From the NCBI GenBank assembly GCA_965228895.1, contig OZ245842.1:3456001-3520000 (forward strand): a DNA stretch of 64,000 nucleotides. Direction: 5' to 3'. This stretch comes from Alphaproteobacteria bacterium. Lineage in GTDB: Bacteria > Pseudomonadota > Alphaproteobacteria > SP197. The position numbers were made by a program, and so were the translations under genes. A model generated the notes under the pieces. That model searched no databases, had not been told where the DNA came from, and was given only the letters and a program-made list of their open reading frames with translations. Positions 51,381-61,356 of the stretch are shown here, one piece after another; the stretch's first letter is position 1, and the number at the start of each line of letters is the position of its first letter.

Positions 51381-52523
51381 TCAATCCAGCAACAGGTTCT
51401 CGCGCTGATCGGCCAGCGGCTCCGCACCGGCGACCTGGCAGACACACTGCCCCTCGACAACGTAGTGGCTGTCGACGAGTTCATAGACCAGACCGTCGGT
51501 CGGGCTCGTCACCGGATGACGCGCCGCCGACGCCTTGTCCGCCATCGGATCGACGATCTCGGCAACAACGTCGCCTGTGCGCACGTGGGCGCCCAGGTCG
51601 GTCTTGAAGCTGACCACGCCCGTCGCCGGCGCCATGATGAAACCGACGCCTGCCAGCGGCGTGGGGTCGCATTGGGGCTCCGGCAGAGGACCGGGATCGC
51701 CGGCGACGACCGAGCGTCGCTGAAGAAACCGCATCAGGTTGGCCGCATCGCCGGCGGCGGTCGCATCGTCGACATCGGTGAAGCCGCGCAGTTCGATTGT
51801 CGCGGATAAACAGCCAAGCGGGATCGGCCGGTCAGGATGGTGCGCGGCAAGTTGCCGCCAGAGATTGGCGACCGCATGATCGAAGGCGACACCGCTGCCG
51901 GTTTCCTCTTCCAGCAATGTCGCCTCGCTACCCAGATCGGCGTGCAGGTCGGCGGCATCGGGCCATGACGCGGCGTTGAGAAAGAGATGCATCAGCGCGT
52001 TCGACGCGCAATGCAGATCGAGCACGATGTCGGCATCGATGGCGAGACCGAGCAGCGCCTTCTTCAGCATCGGCGACGGCTGCGCGGCAGGTGTTGCGGC
52101 GACCGCGTCAATCGCCGCACGACGGATCGCTGCGACGTTGCGCACGGGGTCGTCGCCAAGCTCGGCCGTGACCGAGGCCTCGACGGCATCGGCGACATCG
52201 GGGAAACCACGGTTGAAGTTGACGCCGGAATCCATGTCGTACCGGCCGAGATGGCGGCGCTGCACCCGTTGAGCCAGGCCAATCGGGTTGGCGACCGGCA
52301 CCACGGTCACCTCGCCTTTGATCTCGCCCCTGGCATCCGCGTCTTCAAGCAGCGCCAGCATGTGGTGGGCGACCAACAAGGCCGGAATCTCGCCGGCATG
52401 GATCGCCGCCTGGATAAAGACCTTGGGCCGGACGCCGGTGTCGCCGAAACGGTGCACGGTCAAAACTTGATCGGACCCGAGCGACGGAACCGGCAGCGGC
52501 AGGCGTTCAACGACATGACTCAT
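51381..52523 (-). CDS. M14 succinylglutamate desuccinylase/aspartoacylase family, paralogue 1
   Basis: IHAGE, ANPIG, NFNR, LDLHC, IELRG, C-terminal biotinyl-like hairpin. Confidence 0.9.
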   Translation of the reverse strand: MSHVVERLPLPVPSLGSDQVLTVHRFGDTGVRPKVFIQAAIHAGEIPALLVAHHMLALLEDADARGEIKGEVTVVPVANPIGLAQRVQRRHLGRYDMDSGVNFNRGFPDVADAVEASVTAELGDDPVRNVAAIRRAAIDAVAATPAAQPSPMLKKALLGLAIDADIVLDLHCASNALMHLFLNAASWPDAADLHADLGSEATLLEEETGSGVAFDHAVANLWRQLAAHHPDRPIPLGCLSATIELRGFTDVDDATAAGDAANLMRFLQRRSVVAGDPGPLPEPQCDPTPLAGVGFIMAPATGVVSFKTDLGAHVRTGDVVAEIVDPMADKASAARHPVTSPTDGLVYELVDSHYVVEGQCVCQVAGAEPLADQRENLLLD

Positions 52524-52610
52524 CGCAGGGAAACCCGGGTTCGGTCAGCCGGCATAACGATCTCTATCGTTGTGAGATAGTCTTGCCGGCAAAGGGGAGC
52601 GCAAGATGGC

Positions 52611-52651
52611 ACAAGACCGCTTCGGAATCAGCCATTCCGAAACGGTCTTGT
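52611..52651 (-). terminator. Long hairpin downstream of the BTLCP gene
   Basis: 18-bp stem ACAAGACCGTTTCGGAAT / ATTCCGAAGCGGTCTTGT with one G-U pair on the minus strand. Confidence 0.65.
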
Positions 52652-52725
52652 TGACCCCAGGACGCTAAGCTGCGCGTGTCTGTGGGAAGGGGTTGGACCT
52701 CACGAGCGCCGGTGGCGCGCGCCAG

Positions 52726-53472
52726 CTAGAACAAGCTGATCAGGAAGTCCTCGATCTCGTCGGTCTCGCCATCGCCGGACGCAGGCGCGGTCTGGATGGG
52801 ATCCGGCTCAGGGTGCGCGGCCGGCATGTAGATCCAATGATCGACCTGGTTCAGCGCATAGATCGGACGATAGTCCTCATCCATGTCGACCTCGACCTCG
52901 GTGCTCAGGTTATCAAGCACGAGGGTCTGGCCATTCTGCTGCACTTCCAGAACCGCGTGATGGATGCCCCGGCTTTCGTCCAGCAGCACGACCAGGCGCA
53001 TGTCCTGTTCGGCGAAACCCAGCAGGCGCAGTGCGGCGTACTTGGCGATCGCATAGTCCTCGCAATCGCCCGACCCCGCGGCAAACGACAGCGGCGACTG
53101 CCAGACATCCTCGACACCGAAGATGGCGTCGTCGGTGGTATAGGGCAGACGGTTGAAATGATCGTTGACGGCTTCAAGCTGCTGGTCACGCGGCTTGTCG
53201 GCGACCGTGCCGAGAAAGGCGACGAACGCCGAAACCGACGAACGGTCGCACGAACCGTCCTGGCGACAGGCCTCGATGGTGGCCTCGTCCCGGTCGATCA
53301 GCGTGGTCAGTTGGCTCCAGGCTGGAATCTTCAGCGCGTCGCCGACGCTGACGTCGACGAGCTCGCCATTGTCGTTGGCAAAGGCGTTACCCGTCAGTGC
53401 GAGTAGCGCAATTCCCGTCCCCAAAATCTTTCGAAGAAACCGGCCCCGTGTCCCAGATCGATACAGTTTCAT
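52726..53472 (-). CDS. Periplasmic transglutaminase-like cysteine peptidase (BTLCP/C93, LapG-like)
   Basis: Signal peptide (..GNAFA); AVNDHFN, DD..FGVEDVWQSP, GDCEDYAIAKY, HAVL, VLDNL (Cys-His-Asp triad). Confidence 0.9.
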   Translation of the reverse strand: MKLYRSGTRGRFLRKILGTGIALLALTGNAFANDNGELVDVSVGDALKIPAWSQLTTLIDRDEATIEACRQDGSCDRSSVSAFVAFLGTVADKPRDQQLEAVNDHFNRLPYTTDDAIFGVEDVWQSPLSFAAGSGDCEDYAIAKYAALRLLGFAEQDMRLVVLLDESRGIHHAVLEVQQNGQTLVLDNLSTEVEVDMDEDYRPIYALNQVDHWIYMPAAHPEPDPIQTAPASGDGETDEIEDFLISLF

Positions 53473-53510
53473 CTCCGCGGTCACCAAGTAGTTAGTAACA
53501 CTTTGGGAGT

Positions 53511-53552
53511 AGTGTATCGATACCTCTAACGAGTTATGTGACTGCTATCACA
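53511..53552 (-). promoter_or_regulatory. CRP-type box with -10 element upstream of the BTLCP gene
   Basis: Perfect TGTGA-N6-TCACA at 53537-53552; TACACT on the minus strand at 53516-53511. Confidence 0.6.
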
Positions 53553-53594
53553 AAGAGATAGTTATACGTCTTTAGTGTGGGGTAGAGATGTCTC

Positions 53595-54989
53595 CTAAAC
53601 CTTGCGCCACCACGCGACCGAACCCGATCTTTTCGCCCGTTCCTCGTCATAACGCAGGTAAGGCACCAGCCTGCCGAGCCAGGCCAACGCGCCGTGCTCG
53701 TTCATCCAGTTGGCATAGGCGACGTATTCGGGATAGTTGGAGAGATGGTTCTCCTCGGTCCGCGCGCGCCAATAGTAGATCAGGTTGACGCCGACCAGCA
53801 TGGCGCACAGCTTGCCGGCAAGAACGATGTCGTCGGCCGGGATAAACGGCACCGAGATCATCCACCACGTGATGTTCTTGGCGACATAGGCGGGGTGTTT
53901 GGTCAGCCGGTAGACGCCGGACGTCGCGAGCCCGCGATAAGTCAGGTTCGAAAACCGGAATCCCAGCGACACCGACGCCAGGGTGTAGATCGTGATGAAG
54001 CCGATGATGACCGCCGCCCATGCGACGTAGAGCGCCGGCACCGATTGCAGCCAATGGCCCCAATAGAAACCGTTGTTGTACTGGAGGTACTGGTCGAAGA
54101 CGACAAAGACGAAGGGTTTGTAGCAGACCAGGCACACCAGCCAGCCGATCAATGTCGGCTCCGCCGAGCGGATCTCCGAATTGGTCAGCTTCAGCGTCAT
54201 GATGTAGCCGCAGGTCGCGAACACCAGGTCGATGCCGTAGAGCAGCGAGAACAGGAAGTCGTAGATGGCCCCCGCTGACTCGTTCACGGTTCCCGTGAAA
54301 GTGAAGATGCCGCCATAGTCGAAGCCGATCAGGTTCTCGACCTCCAGTGCCAGGTAGCAGAACATCAGCGGCAGGAAGAACAGCTTGATCAGCCAGACAC
54401 GGACCAACTCCTTGACGTACTGCATGTTGTACGTGAAGCGCCGGTCGTTGGTCATGTAGCGCAACAGGAGGCGGCCCAGGTGATAGTAACCGTCCTCCGG
54501 CTCCTCCATCAGGCGGTCAACATACCAGAAATAGACGAAGGTCAGCGCCAGGATGACCGGCAGGAAAAGGAGCGCAGCGTCGAAGAACCGGCTGTAGAAA
54601 CCGTCGTACTCGGGAAACGTCGAATAGCCGATCGAGCCAAATCCAAGGATGGCCAACAGCGCCAGGAACTTGATGGCGACCCGGCCGATATTCGCACGAG
54701 CGTCGACACGCGCGGTCCGATGGCGGCGAAAGACGAACACGTCGATGCCGACAACCGTCATGATGCCGCAGACAATCGCGATCAGGCAGATCACCGTAAT
54801 GTTGTCGATCGGCATGCCGGTCAGCTGCCGCAGCCAGATGGTCAGCGCGGCCACGGCCTCCATGTTGAGGGCCAGCAAGACCAACGCGCCGACAAACACC
54901 ACAAGGCCGCACACATTCGTGGTGAAGTCGATCTCGCTTTTTGGACATTGCGAAACCGGGACGGCAGCCTGGGAAACGGTTGTTTTCAT
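53595..54989 (-). CDS. ICMT (isoprenylcysteine carboxyl methyltransferase)-like integral membrane protein
   Basis: Many TM helices; RFSNLTYRGLATSGVYRLTKHPAY..YYWRARTEENHL..Y..Y (ICMT/PEMT C-terminal signature). Confidence 0.82.
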   Translation of the reverse strand: MKTTVSQAAVPVSQCPKSEIDFTTNVCGLVVFVGALVLLALNMEAVAALTIWLRQLTGMPIDNITVICLIAIVCGIMTVVGIDVFVFRRHRTARVDARANIGRVAIKFLALLAILGFGSIGYSTFPEYDGFYSRFFDAALLFLPVILALTFVYFWYVDRLMEEPEDGYYHLGRLLLRYMTNDRRFTYNMQYVKELVRVWLIKLFFLPLMFCYLALEVENLIGFDYGGIFTFTGTVNESAGAIYDFLFSLLYGIDLVFATCGYIMTLKLTNSEIRSAEPTLIGWLVCLVCYKPFVFVVFDQYLQYNNGFYWGHWLQSVPALYVAWAAVIIGFITIYTLASVSLGFRFSNLTYRGLATSGVYRLTKHPAYVAKNITWWMISVPFIPADDIVLAGKLCAMLVGVNLIYYWRARTEENHLSNYPEYVAYANWMNEHGALAWLGRLVPYLRYDEERAKRSGSVAWWRKV

Positions 54990-55058
54990 ACAGATTGTCG
55001 CGCTTCGGTCATGGCAATCACCAGCTTGGCCGTGCCAGACCGCCTGGTGACGGGCGTT

Positions 55059-55102
55059 ATTCTATAGGCGGCAGTGTTCCTTAAACTGTGACCCGCATCA
55101 AC
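55059..55102 (-). promoter_or_regulatory. Imperfect CRP/FNR box with -10 element upstream of the ICMT-like gene
   Basis: TGTGA-N6-TCAAC at 55087-55102; TAGAAT on the minus strand at 55064-55059. Confidence 0.45.
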
Positions 55103-55288
55103 AAAGGGCCGGGCCGGCCATTCCCTTTGTTTCAGGCCAAAAACCCGCACCTCTTGAGCAGAATGTGCGTGGGTTGGCTCGTCGAACACCAAGAATCGCC
55201 AGTCTTTTTGATCGCCTTGTGCAAGCCTGATGCCGATGGTGGCTAACCGGCAAAGCGCGCACAGGAACACCCTAGGCCTCGAATCGAC

Positions 55289-55323
55289 GGTGGCCCATGC
55301 GAAACGCGCTCGCATGGGCCACC
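55289..55323 (-). terminator. Hairpin downstream of the GGSN-repeat gene
   Basis: Perfect 14-bp stem GGTGGCCCATGCGA..TCGCATGGGCCACC. Confidence 0.65.
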
Positions 55324-55372
55324 AGTTCGTTGAAGCATGACCTGAAATCAGGTCGCGACTGAGATCAAGGGA

Positions 55373-56248
55373 TTACTCCTGGCGGCCTTCGCGATCGCCG
55401 CCATTTTCACCCCTGTCTTTTCTGCCACCCCAGGTGTCGCCTTCACCCCAGTCGCTATCGCCCCAGTCACTATCGCCCCAGTCGCTATCGCCCCAGTCGC
55501 TATCGCCCCAGTCGCTACCGCCCCAGCCACCGTCGCCGCCGTAACCGCTGGAACCGTGACCGCCGTTGGACGAACCACCGTTCGAACCGCCGTTGGAACC
55601 ACCGTTCGAACCGCCGTTGGAACCACCGTTCGAACCACCGTTCGAGCCGCCGTTCGAGCCGCCGTTCGAACCACCGTTCGAGCCGCCGTTCGAACCACCG
55701 TTGGAACCACCGTTCGAACCGCCGTTGGAACCACCGTTCGAACCACCGTTCGAACCGCCGTTGGAACCACCGTTCGAACCGCCGTTGGAACCACCGTTCG
55801 AACCGCCGTTGGAACCACCGTTCGAACCACCGTTCGAACCGCCGTTGGAACCACCGTTGGAACCACCGCTCGAGCCGTTACCGCCGCCCGAGCCGGAATC
55901 ACGCTCTGGGCCAGGACGCGGTCCTTCACTGATCGGATCGCCAACTGGATCAGGTGCAACCGGACCGGCCGCAGGCGCGATCTCCTGGAGCTGCAAGCTC
56001 AGCTCTTCCAGGTAAGCGATGCACTCGCCAGTATCGACCGCAGCCGAAAGCTGGTCCGGAGTCATTGTCGAGCAGAATGAGAAGGCCTGAGGCGACACCA
56101 TCAACCGCCCATCATCGGCGGCCCGGCCCGTCTCTACGTTGGCCGCCACGGCGACGGCCACGAACCCCGCGCCAATCACCGCGGCACGTGTCCAGGCATA
56201 GCAGGCCAGCCTCTGTTGTTTGGCTTTTTTCAAGGTACCATCCTCCAT
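55373..56248 (-). CDS. Secreted Gly/Ser/Asn-rich repeat protein (likely true start TTG at 56233)
   Basis: Signal-like N-terminus, 2-Cys domain, EIAPAAGP, Pro-rich linker, (GGSN)24, WGDSD repeats, charged tail; variation between repeat units is synonymous in this frame. Confidence 0.8.
   Translation of the reverse strand: MEDGTLKKAKQQRLACYAWTRAAVIGAGFVAVAVAANVETGRAADDGRLMVSPQAFSFCSTMTPDQLSAAVDTGECIAYLEELSLQLQEIAPAAGPVAPDPVGDPISEGPRPGPERDSGSGGGNGSSGGSNGGSNGGSNGGSNGGSNGGSNGGSNGGSNGGSNGGSNGGSNGGSNGGSNGGSNGGSNGGSNGGSNGGSNGGSNGGSNGGSNGGSNGGSNGGSNGGSSNGGHGSSGYGGDGGWGGSDWGDSDWGDSDWGDSDWGDSDWGEGDTWGGRKDRGENGGDREGRQE
55436..55525 (-). repeat. 15-bp coding tandem repeat (WGGSD-WGDSD x4-WGEGD)
   Basis: gtcgctatcgcccca units on the plus strand. 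Confidence 0.92.
55580..55867 (-). repeat. 12-bp coding tandem repeat, 24 copies (GGSN)
   Basis: GGY GGY TCS AAC units, differing only at third codon positions. Confidence 0.95.
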
Positions 56249-56542
56249 TAAGGAACGTTTTTAACGAGGATGGATACTAATCGACATTCAGTCAGTATTT
56301 CGAAATATAATGTATAATGACGGCGAACCTATCGTAATGCTTCCGTGGCCAACAAAGCACATTACATCTTTAGTAATAATACCAAGAGAATTACTTACCT
56401 ACAACGCACCAGCCAATCTCTCGAAGGAGTTGCTACCTTCGCGAAATCGACCTCTCGAACGATGCAAACTCGACTCTAAAGAGAGGCTTGTAGCTCTTTC
56501 GATAGAGCCTATTGGTAAGATAGATGACCGTTCGATCGTGTC

Positions 56543-57649
56543 TTAACAGGTCTCGTACGGTGTATCCGACGCAATCGCACAGATGTACTGGCCGGCCCGG
56601 GCGAATCGGTGGCTGCGCCGGGCATAGAGCAGCCCCGGCCGGGGCGCTTTGACGGCGGTGCGTTGCCGTGTCTGGGGATCGACCACATGGCAGAACGCCT
56701 CATCGGCCATGACGTGATCACCCAAACTGCGATGGTAAACGACGATGCCGCCGGCTGGCGCCATAAGCCTTTTCAGCCCCCGGATTGCGCGCGGCTCGGT
56801 CAGTGCCTCGGGCAAGGGCCCGGGATCGCCGGCGATCACGGCGCGTCTTTGCAGGAAACGATAGAGGTTGTCGGCGTCCGGGCGGGTCAGATGGTCGTCG
56901 ACGTCGCGCTGACCACGCAGTTCAACGACTGCCGCCATGGCGCCGGGCGGCACCGGCACATCCGGGAAACGCTCGGCAAGTGTTTTCCAGACCAGCGCAT
57001 GGGCAGACTTGAACGTCATCATGGCGTTCCCGCGGTCGACCAGAACCACTTGGGCGTGCATCTGACGGGTCAGGTCCTCGGCCTGCGGCCAGTTGACGTC
57101 GGTCACGAAGAGGTGAAGCAGCGCTTCCCAGGCCGAGTGCAGATCAAGGACGATGTCGGCATCGTAGGAGAGCTTGAGCAGTTCGCGCTTCAAGACCTCA
57201 GGCTCACGCGCCACGACCGTCGCATCGAGCGCCTCGCCCATCGCCTGGCGGACCAGCGCGACATTGGCCTGGCTGTCATCGCCGAGTTTGCCGTTCAGGC
57301 GCGCGGCGACAGCATCGGTCAGATTGGGAAATCCACGGTTGTAGTTGCGCCCGGTCGCCAGATCATAGCGGCCCTGGCTTTCCATCATGATCTGCTGGGC
57401 CAGACCGATCGGGTTGGCGAACGGCACAACAACGATTTCGCCGGTGATACGCCCGTCGGCTTCGGCCGCCTCCAGGCGGCCCAACAGATGCTCCAGGACA
57501 ACGATGCCCGGCAATTCGGCGGCGTGCAGGGCGGCGTGAAGGTAGGCTTTGGGACGGGCGCCACGAGTGCCAAAACGATGCACCGTCAGCACACGCTCGG
57601 TACCGAGCGACGGGCACCCAAGGCCCAGGGTCTCAACGTGATGCGCCAT
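56543..57649 (-). CDS. M14 succinylglutamate desuccinylase/aspartoacylase family, paralogue 2
   Basis: LHAAE, ANPIG, NYNR, LDLHS, VELRG. Confidence 0.9.
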   Translation of the reverse strand: MAHHVETLGLGCPSLGTERVLTVHRFGTRGARPKAYLHAALHAAELPGIVVLEHLLGRLEAAEADGRITGEIVVVPFANPIGLAQQIMMESQGRYDLATGRNYNRGFPNLTDAVAARLNGKLGDDSQANVALVRQAMGEALDATVVAREPEVLKRELLKLSYDADIVLDLHSAWEALLHLFVTDVNWPQAEDLTRQMHAQVVLVDRGNAMMTFKSAHALVWKTLAERFPDVPVPPGAMAAVVELRGQRDVDDHLTRPDADNLYRFLQRRAVIAGDPGPLPEALTEPRAIRGLKRLMAPAGGIVVYHRSLGDHVMADEAFCHVVDPQTRQRTAVKAPRPGLLYARRSHRFARAGQYICAIASDTPYETC

Positions 57650-57654
57650 CACGC

Positions 57655-58794
57655 TTAGTAATCGATATGCGGCAAATCAGGCTCCGGAAGCGGCTCTGGC
57701 CCGGCGATTGACGCAAAACTCTGCCCTGGGCGCACCAGCATTGAAAGATTGCGGCCAAAGAACACGCCGTCCGTGCGGCTTCTTACCGGCGTGCGCGCCT
57801 TGTCGAAGTCGGCTTCAGACGGATCAACGACCCAGGCCACGACGTCGCCTTTCTTGATGCGCGCACCAAGCCCGACAGCATATGACAGCACGCCGGCGCA
57901 AGGCGCGACCGCATGATCGACGCCTTCCAGGGGGGTCGGTTCGCCGACCGGTTCCGGTGGCGGGCCGGGATCACCGGCGATCACATCGTGGCGCTGCAGA
58001 AACCGCCACAGACCGCGCGCATCTGTCTCCGCCAACGTTTCGTCGACATCCGGCTGGCCACGCAGTTCCAACGTGGTCGAAAAGGGTGGCGGCGGAACCA
58101 TCCGTTCCGGCAACAACGCGCGTAGCCGGTGCCAGAAGATGGTCGACGCGGCATCGAAGCTCGTGCCTTCGTCGGTGCGGAAGAGCAGGACGACCTTGCA
58201 GCCCAATTCGGCCGGCAGATCCGCATGGGTGTCCCGGTAATCAGCCGGGAGGTAGAGGTACTGCACCGCCTGGCCGTGACAATGCAGGTCAAAGATGTAG
58301 TCGGCGTCGACGCTAAGTGTCAGCAACGCCTTGCGCAACACGTTGGCCTCGCCCTCGGCGCGCCAGTCGTCCAGGGCCGCAAGGGCGGCGTCGCGGATCA
58401 AACGGCGGTTTTCCTCCGCATCATCGCCCAGGACATTACCAACCCGTCCGGCGATTCGGTCTGTCAGATCGGGATACCAGCGATTGAAGTTGCCGTCGCC
58501 GTCCAGATCGTAGCGGCCGAGATGATAGCCATAGATCTGCGAGGCCAGGCCGACCGGGTTGGCATAGGGCAGCACGACGATCTCGCCGTTAACCTCTCCC
58601 CTGGCGTCGGCGTCCTTGAGCCAGCCCAGCATGCGGTTGAGCACCAGCGTGCCAGGCAGTTCGTCGGCGTGGAGCGCGGCGTGCATATAGACCTTCGGAC
58701 GCGCGCCGGGACTGCCGAATCGGTGCACGGTCAACGCCCGTTTTGTGCCGGGACCCGGCGACATCAAAGGAATCGTCTCAATCGAATGGGGCAT
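57655..58794 (-). CDS. M14 succinylglutamate desuccinylase/aspartoacylase family, paralogue 3
   Basis: LHADE, ANPVG, NFNR, FDLHC, LELRG. Confidence 0.9.
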   Translation of the reverse strand: MPHSIETIPLMSPGPGTKRALTVHRFGSPGARPKVYMHAALHADELPGTLVLNRMLGWLKDADARGEVNGEIVVLPYANPVGLASQIYGYHLGRYDLDGDGNFNRWYPDLTDRIAGRVGNVLGDDAEENRRLIRDAALAALDDWRAEGEANVLRKALLTLSVDADYIFDLHCHGQAVQYLYLPADYRDTHADLPAELGCKVVLLFRTDEGTSFDAASTIFWHRLRALLPERMVPPPPFSTTLELRGQPDVDETLAETDARGLWRFLQRHDVIAGDPGPPPEPVGEPTPLEGVDHAVAPCAGVLSYAVGLGARIKKGDVVAWVVDPSEADFDKARTPVRSRTDGVFFGRNLSMLVRPGQSFASIAGPEPLPEPDLPHIDY

Positions 58795-59016
58795 GAATCT
58801 GGGGCTCGGGTCTGGCCGGAAGCCCCTCTTGTCGGAGACCGTGGAGATCAAGTCAAGCCGCGCCAGGCGGCGGATTCCAAGGACGCCCGCCACAAACCTC
58901 CCCCAAACGGATTACCACTTTTAGGGCATACCCATGCTCTACCCCCTTGTCGTTTACCAATTATACGTTGGATAGGGGTAAAATAGCCGCACAACAAAAG
59001 TAAACGGAGCGGCACC

Positions 59017-59654: not shown

Positions 59655-60497
59655 ATGGCAGGGGTCGGCATGTTCGCCAAGACACTGGACGGTTTGCGCA
59701 GCGCGGGCGCCGAAAAGGTGCTGTGCGACGGTAAGGTGCGCTCCACACGATTTCTGACGGCGACCGACGGCATGGGCTTTGCCATGTCGGATGTCCGGCT
59801 TGATGCGGGTCTGGAGCAAGACCTCTGGTACAAGAACCATTGGGAAGCCAACTACGTCGTCGCCGGAACGGGCCACGTCGAAGAAAGCGGCAGCGGTCAG
59901 ACATGGCCGCTTGAGGCCGGCATCATCTATACGGTCGGGCCCAAAGACAGGCACCGTGTCGTCGCCGAGAGCGACGTGCACATCATCAGCATCTTCGATC
60001 CGCCGATCACCGGCAACGAAGCCCACGATGCCGACGGATCCTATGCGCCAAGCGGTCCGGTGCCGCCGGGGCGCGGCACCATGTTCGTCAAGACGCTCAC
60101 CGACCTGCGCGCGGCCGGCAAGGAGATGGTCGTCGCCGGCGGTTCGGCGCGCACCGTGCGCGTGCTGCTGCAAGAGGACGGTTTGGGATTCACGTTGTCA
60201 GACGTCAACCTGAAGGCCGGCAACCGCAACACGCTTTGGTACAAGAACCACTGGGAAGCCAACTACATCCTGGCAGGCAGGGGCGAGGTCAGCGACCTCA
60301 CCACCGGCGAACGTTGGCCGATGGCGCCGGGCATGATGTACTGCGTCGGTCCCGACGACCGGCACAGCATGTTTGCCGAAACCGACCTTCACCTGATCAG
60401 CATCTTCTGTCCGGCGCTGAAAGGTGACGAGATACACGACGCCGACGGCGCACTCGCGCCATCCGGCCCGCTACCGCCGGGTCCGGCCACCGCCTAA
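59655..60497 (+). CDS. Tandem two-domain ectoine synthase (EctC)-like cupin protein
   Basis: Two copies of WYKNHWEANY..Y.VGP.DRH..IF.P...G.E.HD.DG. Confidence 0.85.
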   Translation: MAGVGMFAKTLDGLRSAGAEKVLCDGKVRSTRFLTATDGMGFAMSDVRLDAGLEQDLWYKNHWEANYVVAGTGHVEESGSGQTWPLEAGIIYTVGPKDRHRVVAESDVHIISIFDPPITGNEAHDADGSYAPSGPVPPGRGTMFVKTLTDLRAAGKEMVVAGGSARTVRVLLQEDGLGFTLSDVNLKAGNRNTLWYKNHWEANYILAGRGEVSDLTTGERWPMAPGMMYCVGPDDRHSMFAETDLHLISIFCPALKGDEIHDADGALAPSGPLPPGPATA

Positions 60498-60525
60498 CAG
60501 AACCAACTTCGACGGGGAGACATCG

Positions 60526-61356
60526 ATGCTGATACGCACCATGGATGATATGGAGAAGGCCGGCCGGATCGTTTCGATCTCCCACGGCCGCGCGACCGCC
60601 GTCCGGCCGCTGACCAAATCCGACGGCATGGGTTTCAGCGTCTCCGAAGCACGCGGGCGCGCCGGCAGCGGCAGCGACCTCTGGTACAAAAATCACTGGG
60701 AAGCCAACTACGTGCGCTCCGGCCATGGCTGGGTCCAGGATCTGACCAGCGGCCAGAAGTGGGATTTGGAACCGGGCATGATGTATATCGTCGGCCCGAA
60801 AGACAGACACCACATTCAAAGCAGCGATGAAGAGGCGCTGCGCATCATCAGCACCTTCAATCCGCCGATCGAGGGTGACGAGACCCACGACGACGACGGC
60901 GCCTATCCGCCGACCGGCCCGATCCCCGACGGGCCGGGTCGCATGCTGGTCAGAAGCCGCGCCGATGTCGAGGCCCAGGGCCTCGCCTTCTCGCGCGCCG
61001 GCGGCGCCAGCCAGATCGCGCGCTTCGTCACCGCCAGCGACAACCTCGGCTTCGCAATCAGCGAGGTCCGCTTCAAAGAGGGGCGCGAGGTCGACCTTTG
61101 GTACAAGAATCACTGGGAAGCCAACCTGGTGCTCGACGGCACGATCGAACTGACCCACAAGACGAACGGCGAGGTCCATCAGCTCGGCCCGGGCGGGCTC
61201 TACTGCGTCGGACCGGACGATCCCCATCACATCAAGACGTTGACCGATGTGCGCCTGATCAGCGTCTTCAACCCGCCGCTCGAGGGCCACGAGACTCATG
61301 ACGAAGATGGGGCCTACCCGCCGACCGGACCGCTGCCGCCGGGTCCCGCGGCGTAG
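60526..61356 (+). CDS. Second tandem two-domain EctC-like cupin protein
   Basis: GGGGAG RBS; two copies of WYKNHWEAN..Y.VGP.D.H..FNPP.EG.ETHD.DGAY. Confidence 0.85.
   Translation: MLIRTMDDMEKAGRIVSISHGRATAVRPLTKSDGMGFSVSEARGRAGSGSDLWYKNHWEANYVRSGHGWVQDLTSGQKWDLEPGMMYIVGPKDRHHIQSSDEEALRIISTFNPPIEGDETHDDDGAYPPTGPIPDGPGRMLVRSRADVEAQGLAFSRAGGASQIARFVTASDNLGFAISEVRFKEGREVDLWYKNHWEANLVLDGTIELTHKTNGEVHQLGPGGLYCVGPDDPHHIKTLTDVRLISVFNPPLEGHETHDEDGAYPPTGPLPPGPAA

Follow-up and report, generated by a model that had tools for sequence, protein, structure and literature searches.

The window analysed here is a stretch of 64,000 nt from an alphaproteobacterial genome (G000:C1:3456001-3520000; G000, the studied genome, is one contig of 5.53 Mb, 98.7% complete). 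It contains a trio of co-oriented minus-strand genes, coding for a repeat protein, a membrane protein similar to isoprenylcysteine carboxyl methyltransferase (ICMT) and a protease of the BTLCP family. The trio is a real, lineage-restricted module; the reading proposed for it, to which about an even chance is given, is that the BTLCP cleaves the repeat protein, with a parallel methylation by the ICMT-fold protein. The features of the locus are listed below by window position.

52611-52651, minus strand: 18-bp hairpin 3' of the BTLCP gene (fold compared with shuffles; kept in both congeners)
52726-53472, minus strand: BTLCP (Peptidase_C93), 248 aa, with signal peptide (PF06035, 70.7 bits, cut-off 27)
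53537-53552, strand not applicable: perfect TGTGA-N6-TCACA box; the BTLCP gene starts 65 nt downstream
53595-54989, minus strand: ICMT-like protein, 464 aa, about 10 transmembrane helices, C-terminal ICMT/PEMT fold
55087-55102, strand not applicable: CRP/FNR-type box with 2 mismatches, upstream of the ICMT-like gene
55289-55323, minus strand: 14-bp hairpin without U tract, 3' of the repeat gene (fold compared with shuffles; congeners)
55373-56233, minus strand: repeat protein, 286 aa, start TTG 56233 (sequence analysis, no Pfam family)
55376-55890, minus strand: Gly/Ser/Asn low-complexity tail
55964-55975, minus strand: P-A-A-G, candidate BTLCP site
55964-56119, minus strand: head domain with C-x16-C, amphipathic helix and P-A-A-G (head alignments A1, A3)
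56120-56233, minus strand: predicted Sec signal peptide (hydropathy, by eye; A-x-A-type sites in homologues)

The three genes lie in the order and orientation originally predicted. They are flanked by M14 genes of the AstE-AspA type (51381-52523 on one side, 56543-57652 and 57655-58830 on the other), which share 43-47% identity and have no further paralogue in the genome. The description of the trio as a cassette within a contiguous M14 array thus holds for the flanks, while the insertion itself can only be presumed: no genome carrying the array without the trio was found. AT-rich intergenic DNA, also claimed, is present in two of the four spacers (GC 0.42, 0.57, 0.43 and 0.61, against 0.62 for the genome). 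GC content at third codon positions is native-like in the ICMT-like (0.85) and BTLCP (0.78) genes. The arrangement is not an assembly artefact, since a contig from another strain spans the same stretch (51400-55714), with 35 differences and one extra 15-nt unit in the tail of the repeat protein. In an RNA run, a lone 177-nt contig falls inside the ICMT-like gene, and does not count as evidence of expression.

The repeat protein and its candidate protease

The start of the repeat gene, TTG 56233, is preceded by GGAGGA; the ATG at 56248 reads ACG in both congeners. The protein is composed of a signal peptide, a two-Cys head, the P-A-A-G motif, a Pro-rich linker, about 24 GGSN repeats and six units of the WG-x-x-D type. 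The signal peptide, recognized by eye, features a basic n-region with a conserved Cys, a hydrophobic core and a predicted G-R-A cleavage site, and points to export by the Sec route; the C-x16-C pair of the head, about 50 residues long, probably forms a disulfide. The 199 residues following the motif Pro hold 81 Gly, 38 Ser, 27 Asn and 16 Asp, and the tail carries one Lys and one Gln.

The head family comprises six copies in three congeneric genomes, plus six environmental proteins. Codon changes relative to genome G002 (29 synonymous, 12 non-synonymous) indicate that the head is under purifying selection. P-x-x-G is found in 15 of 16 heads, and the motif is conserved while the adjacent residues vary: PAAG occurs in 8, PEAG and PAEG in 2 each, PAVG, PASG, PGVG and PAAD in 1 each, the background for PAAG being 7e-5 per residue. 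The consensus described for LapG and DvhG sites consists of a targeting helix, DP and [T/A/P]AAG, with the cut between the alanines (PMC13090378, PMC3032545); LapA is cut after Ala108 (PMC3032545). A [T/A/P]AAG following the helix is found in the repeat protein and in 8 of the 16 heads, and in neither congener orthologue.

Of the 13 matches obtained by the head representative search, 6 were kept; four (P0255, P0256, P0259, P0262) were left out as long multi-stretch matches, and P0254, P0257 and P0261 are unrelated repeats. The head gave no match in a word-indexed protein search, and an Atlas search returned leads below 0.9 only. Weak matches to alignment A3 in the class search (G160, G313, G337) did not correspond to any visible head-like open reading frame (ORF); from the head-only genome scan, L029, a congener contig, was kept, while L030 is a chance match inside an ORF resembling a nonribosomal peptide synthetase. 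Look-alike proteins, with C-x9-C, a helix and PxxG, are encoded beside an ICMT-like gene in family f84: their heads, 19-20% identical and missed by the profile of the family studied here (f1), are alike in layout and at most possible homologues.

Two side observations concern these proteins. The n-region Cys (56201-56203) is aligned in 10 of the 11 f1-type heads having an N-terminus, and lies nearby in the eleventh; the f84 proteins lack it. No other conserved nucleophile lies on the cytoplasmic side. At L137:4899-10036, a locus of f84, three Gly/Ser-rich exported proteins surround the ICMT-like gene, by a ctrA-like gene (label assigned by eye).

As for the protease, the triad C137-H172-D187 and the calcium motif D136/E138, both as defined in PMC13090378, are invariant across 92 homologue rows. 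The protein is soluble, not membrane-anchored. Against the LapG equivalog it scores 81.3 bits, below the cut-off of 320, and in a quick, unfinished tree it forms a clade of its own (support 94).

Binding between the two proteins was modelled from BTLCP residues 33-225 and head residues 37-97, each chain with its own alignment. The complex scores 0.66, against 0.01 for the best control; the runs have at least 93% of contacts in common, with partner confidence (pLDDT) of at least 70. Of the solved pairs, 116 of 157 attained the score mark, and of the mismatched pairs 2 of 215; these counts are approximate where own alignments are used. The modelled interface joins protease residues 136-138 and 170-173 to the head helix, which packs on the protease sheet, and to the stretch IAPAAGP, and supports binding of helix and PAAG at the catalytic cleft. 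Solved relatives by sequence are two only, neither named as a substrate complex; one of them is the LapG-LapD complex, so that some likeness of the model to a solved complex is possible. The arrangement is that described for LapG and DvhG models (PMC13090378).

The original prediction had named the repeat protein as the cognate partner of the BTLCP. This claim is sustained by the conserved motif, the synteny of the trio, the model and the absence from the genome of LapD and of any RTX protein with a LapG site. No LapD was detected in the single, nearly complete contig of G000, while the same search was positive in 47 of 201 genomes of the phylum. A profile built on 18 alphaproteobacterial partners of DvhD type matched only PAS stretches in G000. 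The genome contains three RTX ORFs, one of 2,963 aa, and none of the three features an N-terminal [T/A/P]AAG or DP..AAG. A genome-wide check for lapD and type I secretion system (T1SS) genes had been advised at the outset; T1SS-type ABC transporters are present, the best scoring 501 bits against LssB/LapB, below the cut-off of 693. Because LapD, a DvhD-like receptor and an RTX ORF with a site are all missing, G000 offers neither of the established ways of control, nor a substrate of the canonical kind.

Other BTLCP loci provided further observations. At 21 of the 46 other alphaproteobacterial BTLCP loci (L204-L243), a partner of 630-740 aa adjoins the protease gene, mostly in divergent orientation; all ten partners scanned are PAS/HD-GYP proteins, three with a dCache match, so that a BTLCP with an adjacent PAS/HD-GYP membrane protein constitutes a DvhD-like arrangement outside Desulfovibrio. 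The second BTLCP of G000 (L016, G000:C1:4262080-4262906) is 63% identical to the first, with a 76% identical promoter, and lies in a region of metal resistance and insertion sequences: it was copied with its promoter, and without the other two genes of the trio. At L197:6781-8544 (G115), a BTLCP gene is divergent from that of a probable lipoprotein with a Gly/Ser tail and without a PAAG site. Finally, one T1SS-type ABC transporter match of G000 (G000:C1:4226125-4227849) contains one TGA, and is possibly a broken gene.

Conservation and regulatory elements of the trio

The trio is syntenic in both congeners examined, whose contigs both break inside the repeat gene. The closest homologues outside the genus include P0251 (repeat protein, 45% identity), P0011 (57%) and P0127 (54%); each is a singleton with a single contig, in all three cases an ENA record with the same length of exactly 15,395 nt, so that the three genes probably lie together on one contig of a distant relative. 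A search of 58 further relatives did not reveal the ICMT-like gene. Co-occurrence of the three genes elsewhere, on which the original prediction had been staked, is therefore found in the two congeners and probably in one distant relative, and is broken up beyond the lineage. Among 102 loci with the ICMT-like gene, only the 2 from the congeners have a BTLCP gene nearby, and among 12 fresh loci none does (2 of 114 in all). A BTLCP is encoded somewhere in 9 of the 18 genomes that have the ICMT-like gene, compared with 129 of the 401 alphaproteobacterial genomes sampled.

Both hairpins and both CRP-type boxes, noticed at first by inspection, stood up to closer analysis. The folding z is -6.1 for hairpin 55289-55323 and -4.6 for 52611-52651, with none of 200 shuffles equally good; the stems are conserved in both congeners, the loop of 55289-55323 being altered in both, and neither hairpin is a dispersed repeat. 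Hairpin 55289-55323 is a probable transcript end or stabilizer. Box 55087-55102 is invariant in both congeners while the rest of its spacer diverged. Box 53537-53552, also invariant, is one of only two perfect TGTGA-N6-TCACA sites in the whole genome, and a copy with one mismatch precedes the paralogous BTLCP gene; genes for regulators with a CRP-type helix-turn-helix exist in G000. No CtrA box was listed for the region in the genome box scan, sigma-70 and terminator scans of the region gave matches at chance level only, and Rfam matches were sub-threshold and within the repeat.

These elements are more in keeping with separate control of each gene than with a single transcript. To call the cassette self-contained, as was done initially, is an overstatement: each gene has one or more unlinked paralogues, and each apparently its own upstream regulatory element.

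The same box type occurs elsewhere in G000. The other perfect site (about G000:C1 1351900-1359300, L203:4906-12322) lies before a precursor-like ORF with multiple repeats, followed by YcaO-like, TfuA-like and CRP genes, with a divergent cyclase/ATPase/TPR gene; by these labels, assigned from sequence and not from domain scans, it is a candidate cluster for a cyclic-nucleotide-controlled thioamide peptide of the ribosomally synthesized, post-translationally modified class. Boxes with one mismatch, at G000:C1:5279896, 5294010 and 5295209, precede Tad-pilus-like genes (labels by eye), which suggests a putative surface-structure regulon. In the window itself, 59655-61356 holds two tandem genes, each consisting of two cupin halves of the ectoine-synthase-like type, with a repeated WYKNHWE motif, beside cydAB-like genes.

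The ICMT-like membrane protein

The ICMT-like protein is about 230 residues longer than ICMT, owing to an N-terminal extension of five helices. Its family scores are low: 20.1 bits for Pfam ICMT (cut-off 24) and 20.7 for NCBIfam ICMT (cut-off 160), both below threshold, and 21 for DUF1295 (cut-off 20.4). The ICMT identity originally given is thus not reached by Pfam score, and is upheld at the level of the fold. In the AlphaFold2 model (pLDDT 87.9), the C-terminal half finds its best structural match in Ma-ICMT 4a2n (Z 10.9, root-mean-square deviation 3.6, 169 aligned residues), with sterol and steroid reductases behind; as the match is helical, it gives moderate support to the ICMT fold. The N-terminal half alone (pLDDT 93.7) has no structural match at Z >= 8. 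Foldseek returned nothing at E <= 0.001, eukaryotic ICMT being ranked first; a PDB sequence search with alignment A2 gave no match, and an Atlas search led to ICMT/DUF1295 clusters. The HPxY and RxxxEE motifs, which bind S-adenosylmethionine (SAM), are invariant in all 57 rows.

The SAM site of ICMT enzymes is cytoplasmic. Here too, according to the positive-inside pattern of basic residues, the motif loop and the C-tail face the cytoplasm, and a CaaX end is absent from all five repeat proteins checked: the caveat attached to the original prediction on both counts was well founded. Since the SAM site is cytoplasmic, a periplasmic cut product would be on the wrong side for this enzyme.

A general tie between the ICMT-like gene and BTLCP, implied by that prediction, does not extend beyond the congeners; the neighbours tend instead toward exported proteins with Ser/Gly tracts and toward glycosyltransferases of the C type (GT-C). 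By a tract rule fixed after the first examples had been seen, 22 Gly/Ser tracts fall within 2 kb of ICMT-like genes (319 kb scanned) and 6 farther away (628 kb). Once the own-genus cluster, near-duplicates and contig ends are removed, 7 remain in 207 kb near the gene and 4 in 425 kb far from it (p 0.035). Contig ends carry a tract in 7 of 70 cases near the ICMT-like gene and in none of 66 far from it, while 76 BTLCP control loci feature 1 tract in 627 kb. In the fresh loci a tract protein lies directly upstream of the ICMT-like gene in 4 of 12 (3 from f246, 1 from f93), and there is none elsewhere; no tracts occur at six loci of another family, f146, in which the gene is almost always present (15 of 17). 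Overall, the pairing recurs in at least four families (f1, f84, f93, f246). Most frequent among the neighbours is a PMT_2-like GT-C, directly adjoining the gene in 14 of 102 loci (7 of 68 clusters); PEP-CTERM, two-partner-secretion and collagen-like proteins also occur nearby.

Readings of the locus and known systems

The following sequence of events is proposed. The repeat protein and the BTLCP, each with a signal peptide, would both be exported via Sec. In the periplasm, the calcium-dependent protease would bind the amphipathic helix of the disulfide-closed head, as modelled, and would cut within P-A-A-G, as LapG and DvhG do; the cut would part the small head from the Gly/Ser/Asn tail. No cyclic di-GMP (c-di-GMP) receptor would gate the reaction, the amount of protease being probably set by a CRP-family regulator acting through the box. 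The ICMT-fold protein would act in parallel to the cut, not after it, transferring methyl groups from cytoplasmic SAM to an acceptor in the membrane, for which a polyprenyl-linked sugar or lipid used in decorating Ser-rich exported proteins is the likeliest candidate. The product would be a periplasmic or surface mucin-like polymer, the retention of which is controlled by the cut. Methylation of a lipid-linked sugar for Ser-rich proteins would fit both fold and topology.

A number of points weigh against this reading. In the studied genome there are unlinked paralogues, two of the repeat protein, one of the ICMT-like protein and one of the BTLCP. Neither the head nor the ICMT-like gene is found at any of the 46 other alphaproteobacterial BTLCP loci, the absence of the head being the adverse part, and in f84 BTLCPs sit on contigs other than those with the PAAG proteins and the ICMT-like gene. 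Both congener orthologues read PEAG, with Glu at P1 in place of the Ala of LapA, and no compensating change is seen next to the triad; none of the 15 rows of A3 has a DP turn before the motif. In the model, the catalytic Cys belongs to the listed interface residues and falls outside the 25 best pairs, so that the register of cleavage is a presumed one. An outer-membrane pore that could serve the repeat protein was not identified, nor is a pore gene linked to the trio. As to the methylation step, 18 of 102 ICMT-like loci have a tract within 2 kb and 84 do not, 3 of the 7 de-duplicated near tracts belong to one locus, and at 60% clustering the counts fall to 5 near and 3 far (p 0.07). PMT_2, PMT and the neighbour-type GT-C are all undetectable in G000, which makes the lipid-linked-sugar step weak.

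Some of the same evidence could be read differently. The head may be a pseudo-substrate, holding or inhibiting the BTLCP cleft instead of LapD or DvhD, with another envelope protein as the real target, as suspected for Caulobacter HvyA. The complex model indicates binding, not cutting; half of the heads (8 of 16) read PEAG, PAEG, PAVG, PASG, PGVG or PAAD; no known receptor is present in G000; and HvyA affects capsulation through a target given as unknown (PMC4241560). Yet the exact cleavable consensus is kept in the other half of the heads, including the distant P0251, and three long Gly-rich paralogues exceed the needs of an inhibitor: the pseudo-substrate is regarded as unlikely.

Retention of the trio at 45-57% identity, a complex score far above the controls and a motif conserved amid varying residues are difficult to reconcile with a co-regulated neighbourhood of cell-surface genes, without any enzyme-substrate relation, in which PxxG would be a linker motif. 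Such a neighbourhood, distinctly unlikely on these grounds, would account for the separate promoters and hairpins, for the unlinked paralogues and for the lack of linkage between ICMT-like and BTLCP genes outside the lineage.

It is quite improbable that the BTLCP acts as a transpeptidase or transglutaminase, cross-linking repeat proteins, at PxxG or at a head Gln, into a coat or cyst-like layer. Transamidation has been proposed as BTLCP chemistry (PMC4241560), the cyst regulator CgrA of R. centenum binds the same box sequence (PMC4681086), and Glu is tolerated at P1 among the heads; the characterized BTLCPs, however, are hydrolases (PMC13090378, PMC3032545), and the tail offers just one Lys and one Gln.

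The coupling of cleavage to methylation entertained by the original prediction, where the BTLCP cut would expose a C-terminus to be carboxyl-methylated by the ICMT-like protein in the manner of Rce1 and ICMT, is not supported and very improbable. The genes are adjacent, CRP-type boxes are common to both, and the ICMT fold and SAM motifs are intact; against this stand the opposite sides of the membrane, cytoplasmic for the SAM loop and tail and periplasmic for the cut, the lack of CaaX and the rarity of BTLCP near the ICMT-like gene. A canonical T1SS/RTX adhesin from another part of G000 is hardly credible as the substrate: T1SS-type transporters and three RTX ORFs do exist there, but no transporter reaches the LssB/LapB cut-off, no RTX ORF has a site, and LapD is lacking.

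If cleavage of the repeat protein is confirmed, the range of LapG-type substrates would no longer be one of giant adhesins, but would include small Sec proteins. BTLCPs are widespread in the alphaproteobacterial genomes sampled, and the target of HvyA, a LapD-free member, was unknown in 2014 (PMC4241560); literature searches found no later paper naming a target for a BTLCP of this type. The locus supplies a first concrete candidate target for a receptor-free alphaproteobacterial BTLCP: a short protein, the predicted cut site of which suits existing SUMO-GFP reporter assays. The Ser/Gly-tract pairing gives a first hint, at the level of the family, of what a widespread, uncharacterized ICMT-fold membrane protein may do. 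A broader proposal is possible, if rather doubtful: receptor-free alphaproteobacterial BTLCPs would process small Sec-exported, mucin-like proteins with a Cys hook and PxxG, a class not recognized before; the ICMT-fold family with 10 transmembrane helices would be a dedicated methylating step for surface proteins with Ser/Gly tracts throughout Proteobacteria; and the two would form a module under joint cyclic-nucleotide/CRP control, by which a protein coat is built and shed without T1SS, LapD or c-di-GMP. No report of a small Sec-exported BTLCP substrate, or of the trio, was found in a literature search that did not cover most subscription journals.

CdrA of Pseudomonas aeruginosa is exported via Sec. 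A LapG substrate of the two-partner secretion system CdrA/CdrB, it features a cysteine hook beside TAAG (PMC13405001), as the repeat protein has a Cys loop; CdrA is about 220 kDa, with a C-terminal hook and a dedicated pore, whereas the repeat protein is small, with the loop N-terminal and no linked pore gene.

With the Lap system (LapG-LapD-LapA/MapA; FrhA/CraA in Vibrio, BrtA in Bordetella) the trio shares a BTLCP with Cys-His-Asp and calcium motif, and a substrate layout made of a small N-terminal domain, a helix, [T/A/P]AAG and a Gly-rich unstructured segment (10.1101/198937, PMC13090378). It differs by the lack of LapD, by a substrate candidate of only 286 aa that carries a Sec signal and neither RTX motifs nor a T1SS signal, and by a motif without DP, relaxed to P-x-x-G. 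Such a protein belongs to a class excluded by design from the published screen for LapG substrates, which required more than 1000 aa and RTX motifs (10.1101/198937). In the Dvh system of Desulfovibrio (DvhG-DvhD-DvhA), as in the alphaproteobacterial BTLCPs linked to dCache-PAS-HD-GYP proteins, the BTLCP is likewise independent of LapD, and a folded N-terminal domain helps substrate docking (PMC13090378); G000, in contrast, has no HD-GYP receptor, and its protease is soluble rather than membrane-anchored and branches apart in the tree. Two Sec-exported alphaproteobacterial BTLCPs, Caulobacter HvyA and Sinorhizobium SMc00998, are likewise controlled by expression rather than by LapD (PMC4241560); their targets are unknown and their promoters controlled by CtrA or MucR, while the trio features a CRP-type box and an adjacent candidate substrate.

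For the membrane protein, the nearest precedent is BCAM0694 of B. cenocepacia, an ICMT-like gene beside that of a GTS-repeat protein, on which its product was guessed to act (PMC10224339). The C-terminal fold and SAM motifs are those of the ICMT/PEMT-fold enzymes (Ma-ICMT, eukaryotic ICMT), from which the ICMT-like protein is set apart by its N-terminal extension, its scores below the family cut-offs and the absence of a CaaX substrate. The trio is outside the Lap and Dvh systems, and its membrane protein is not a CaaX ICMT.

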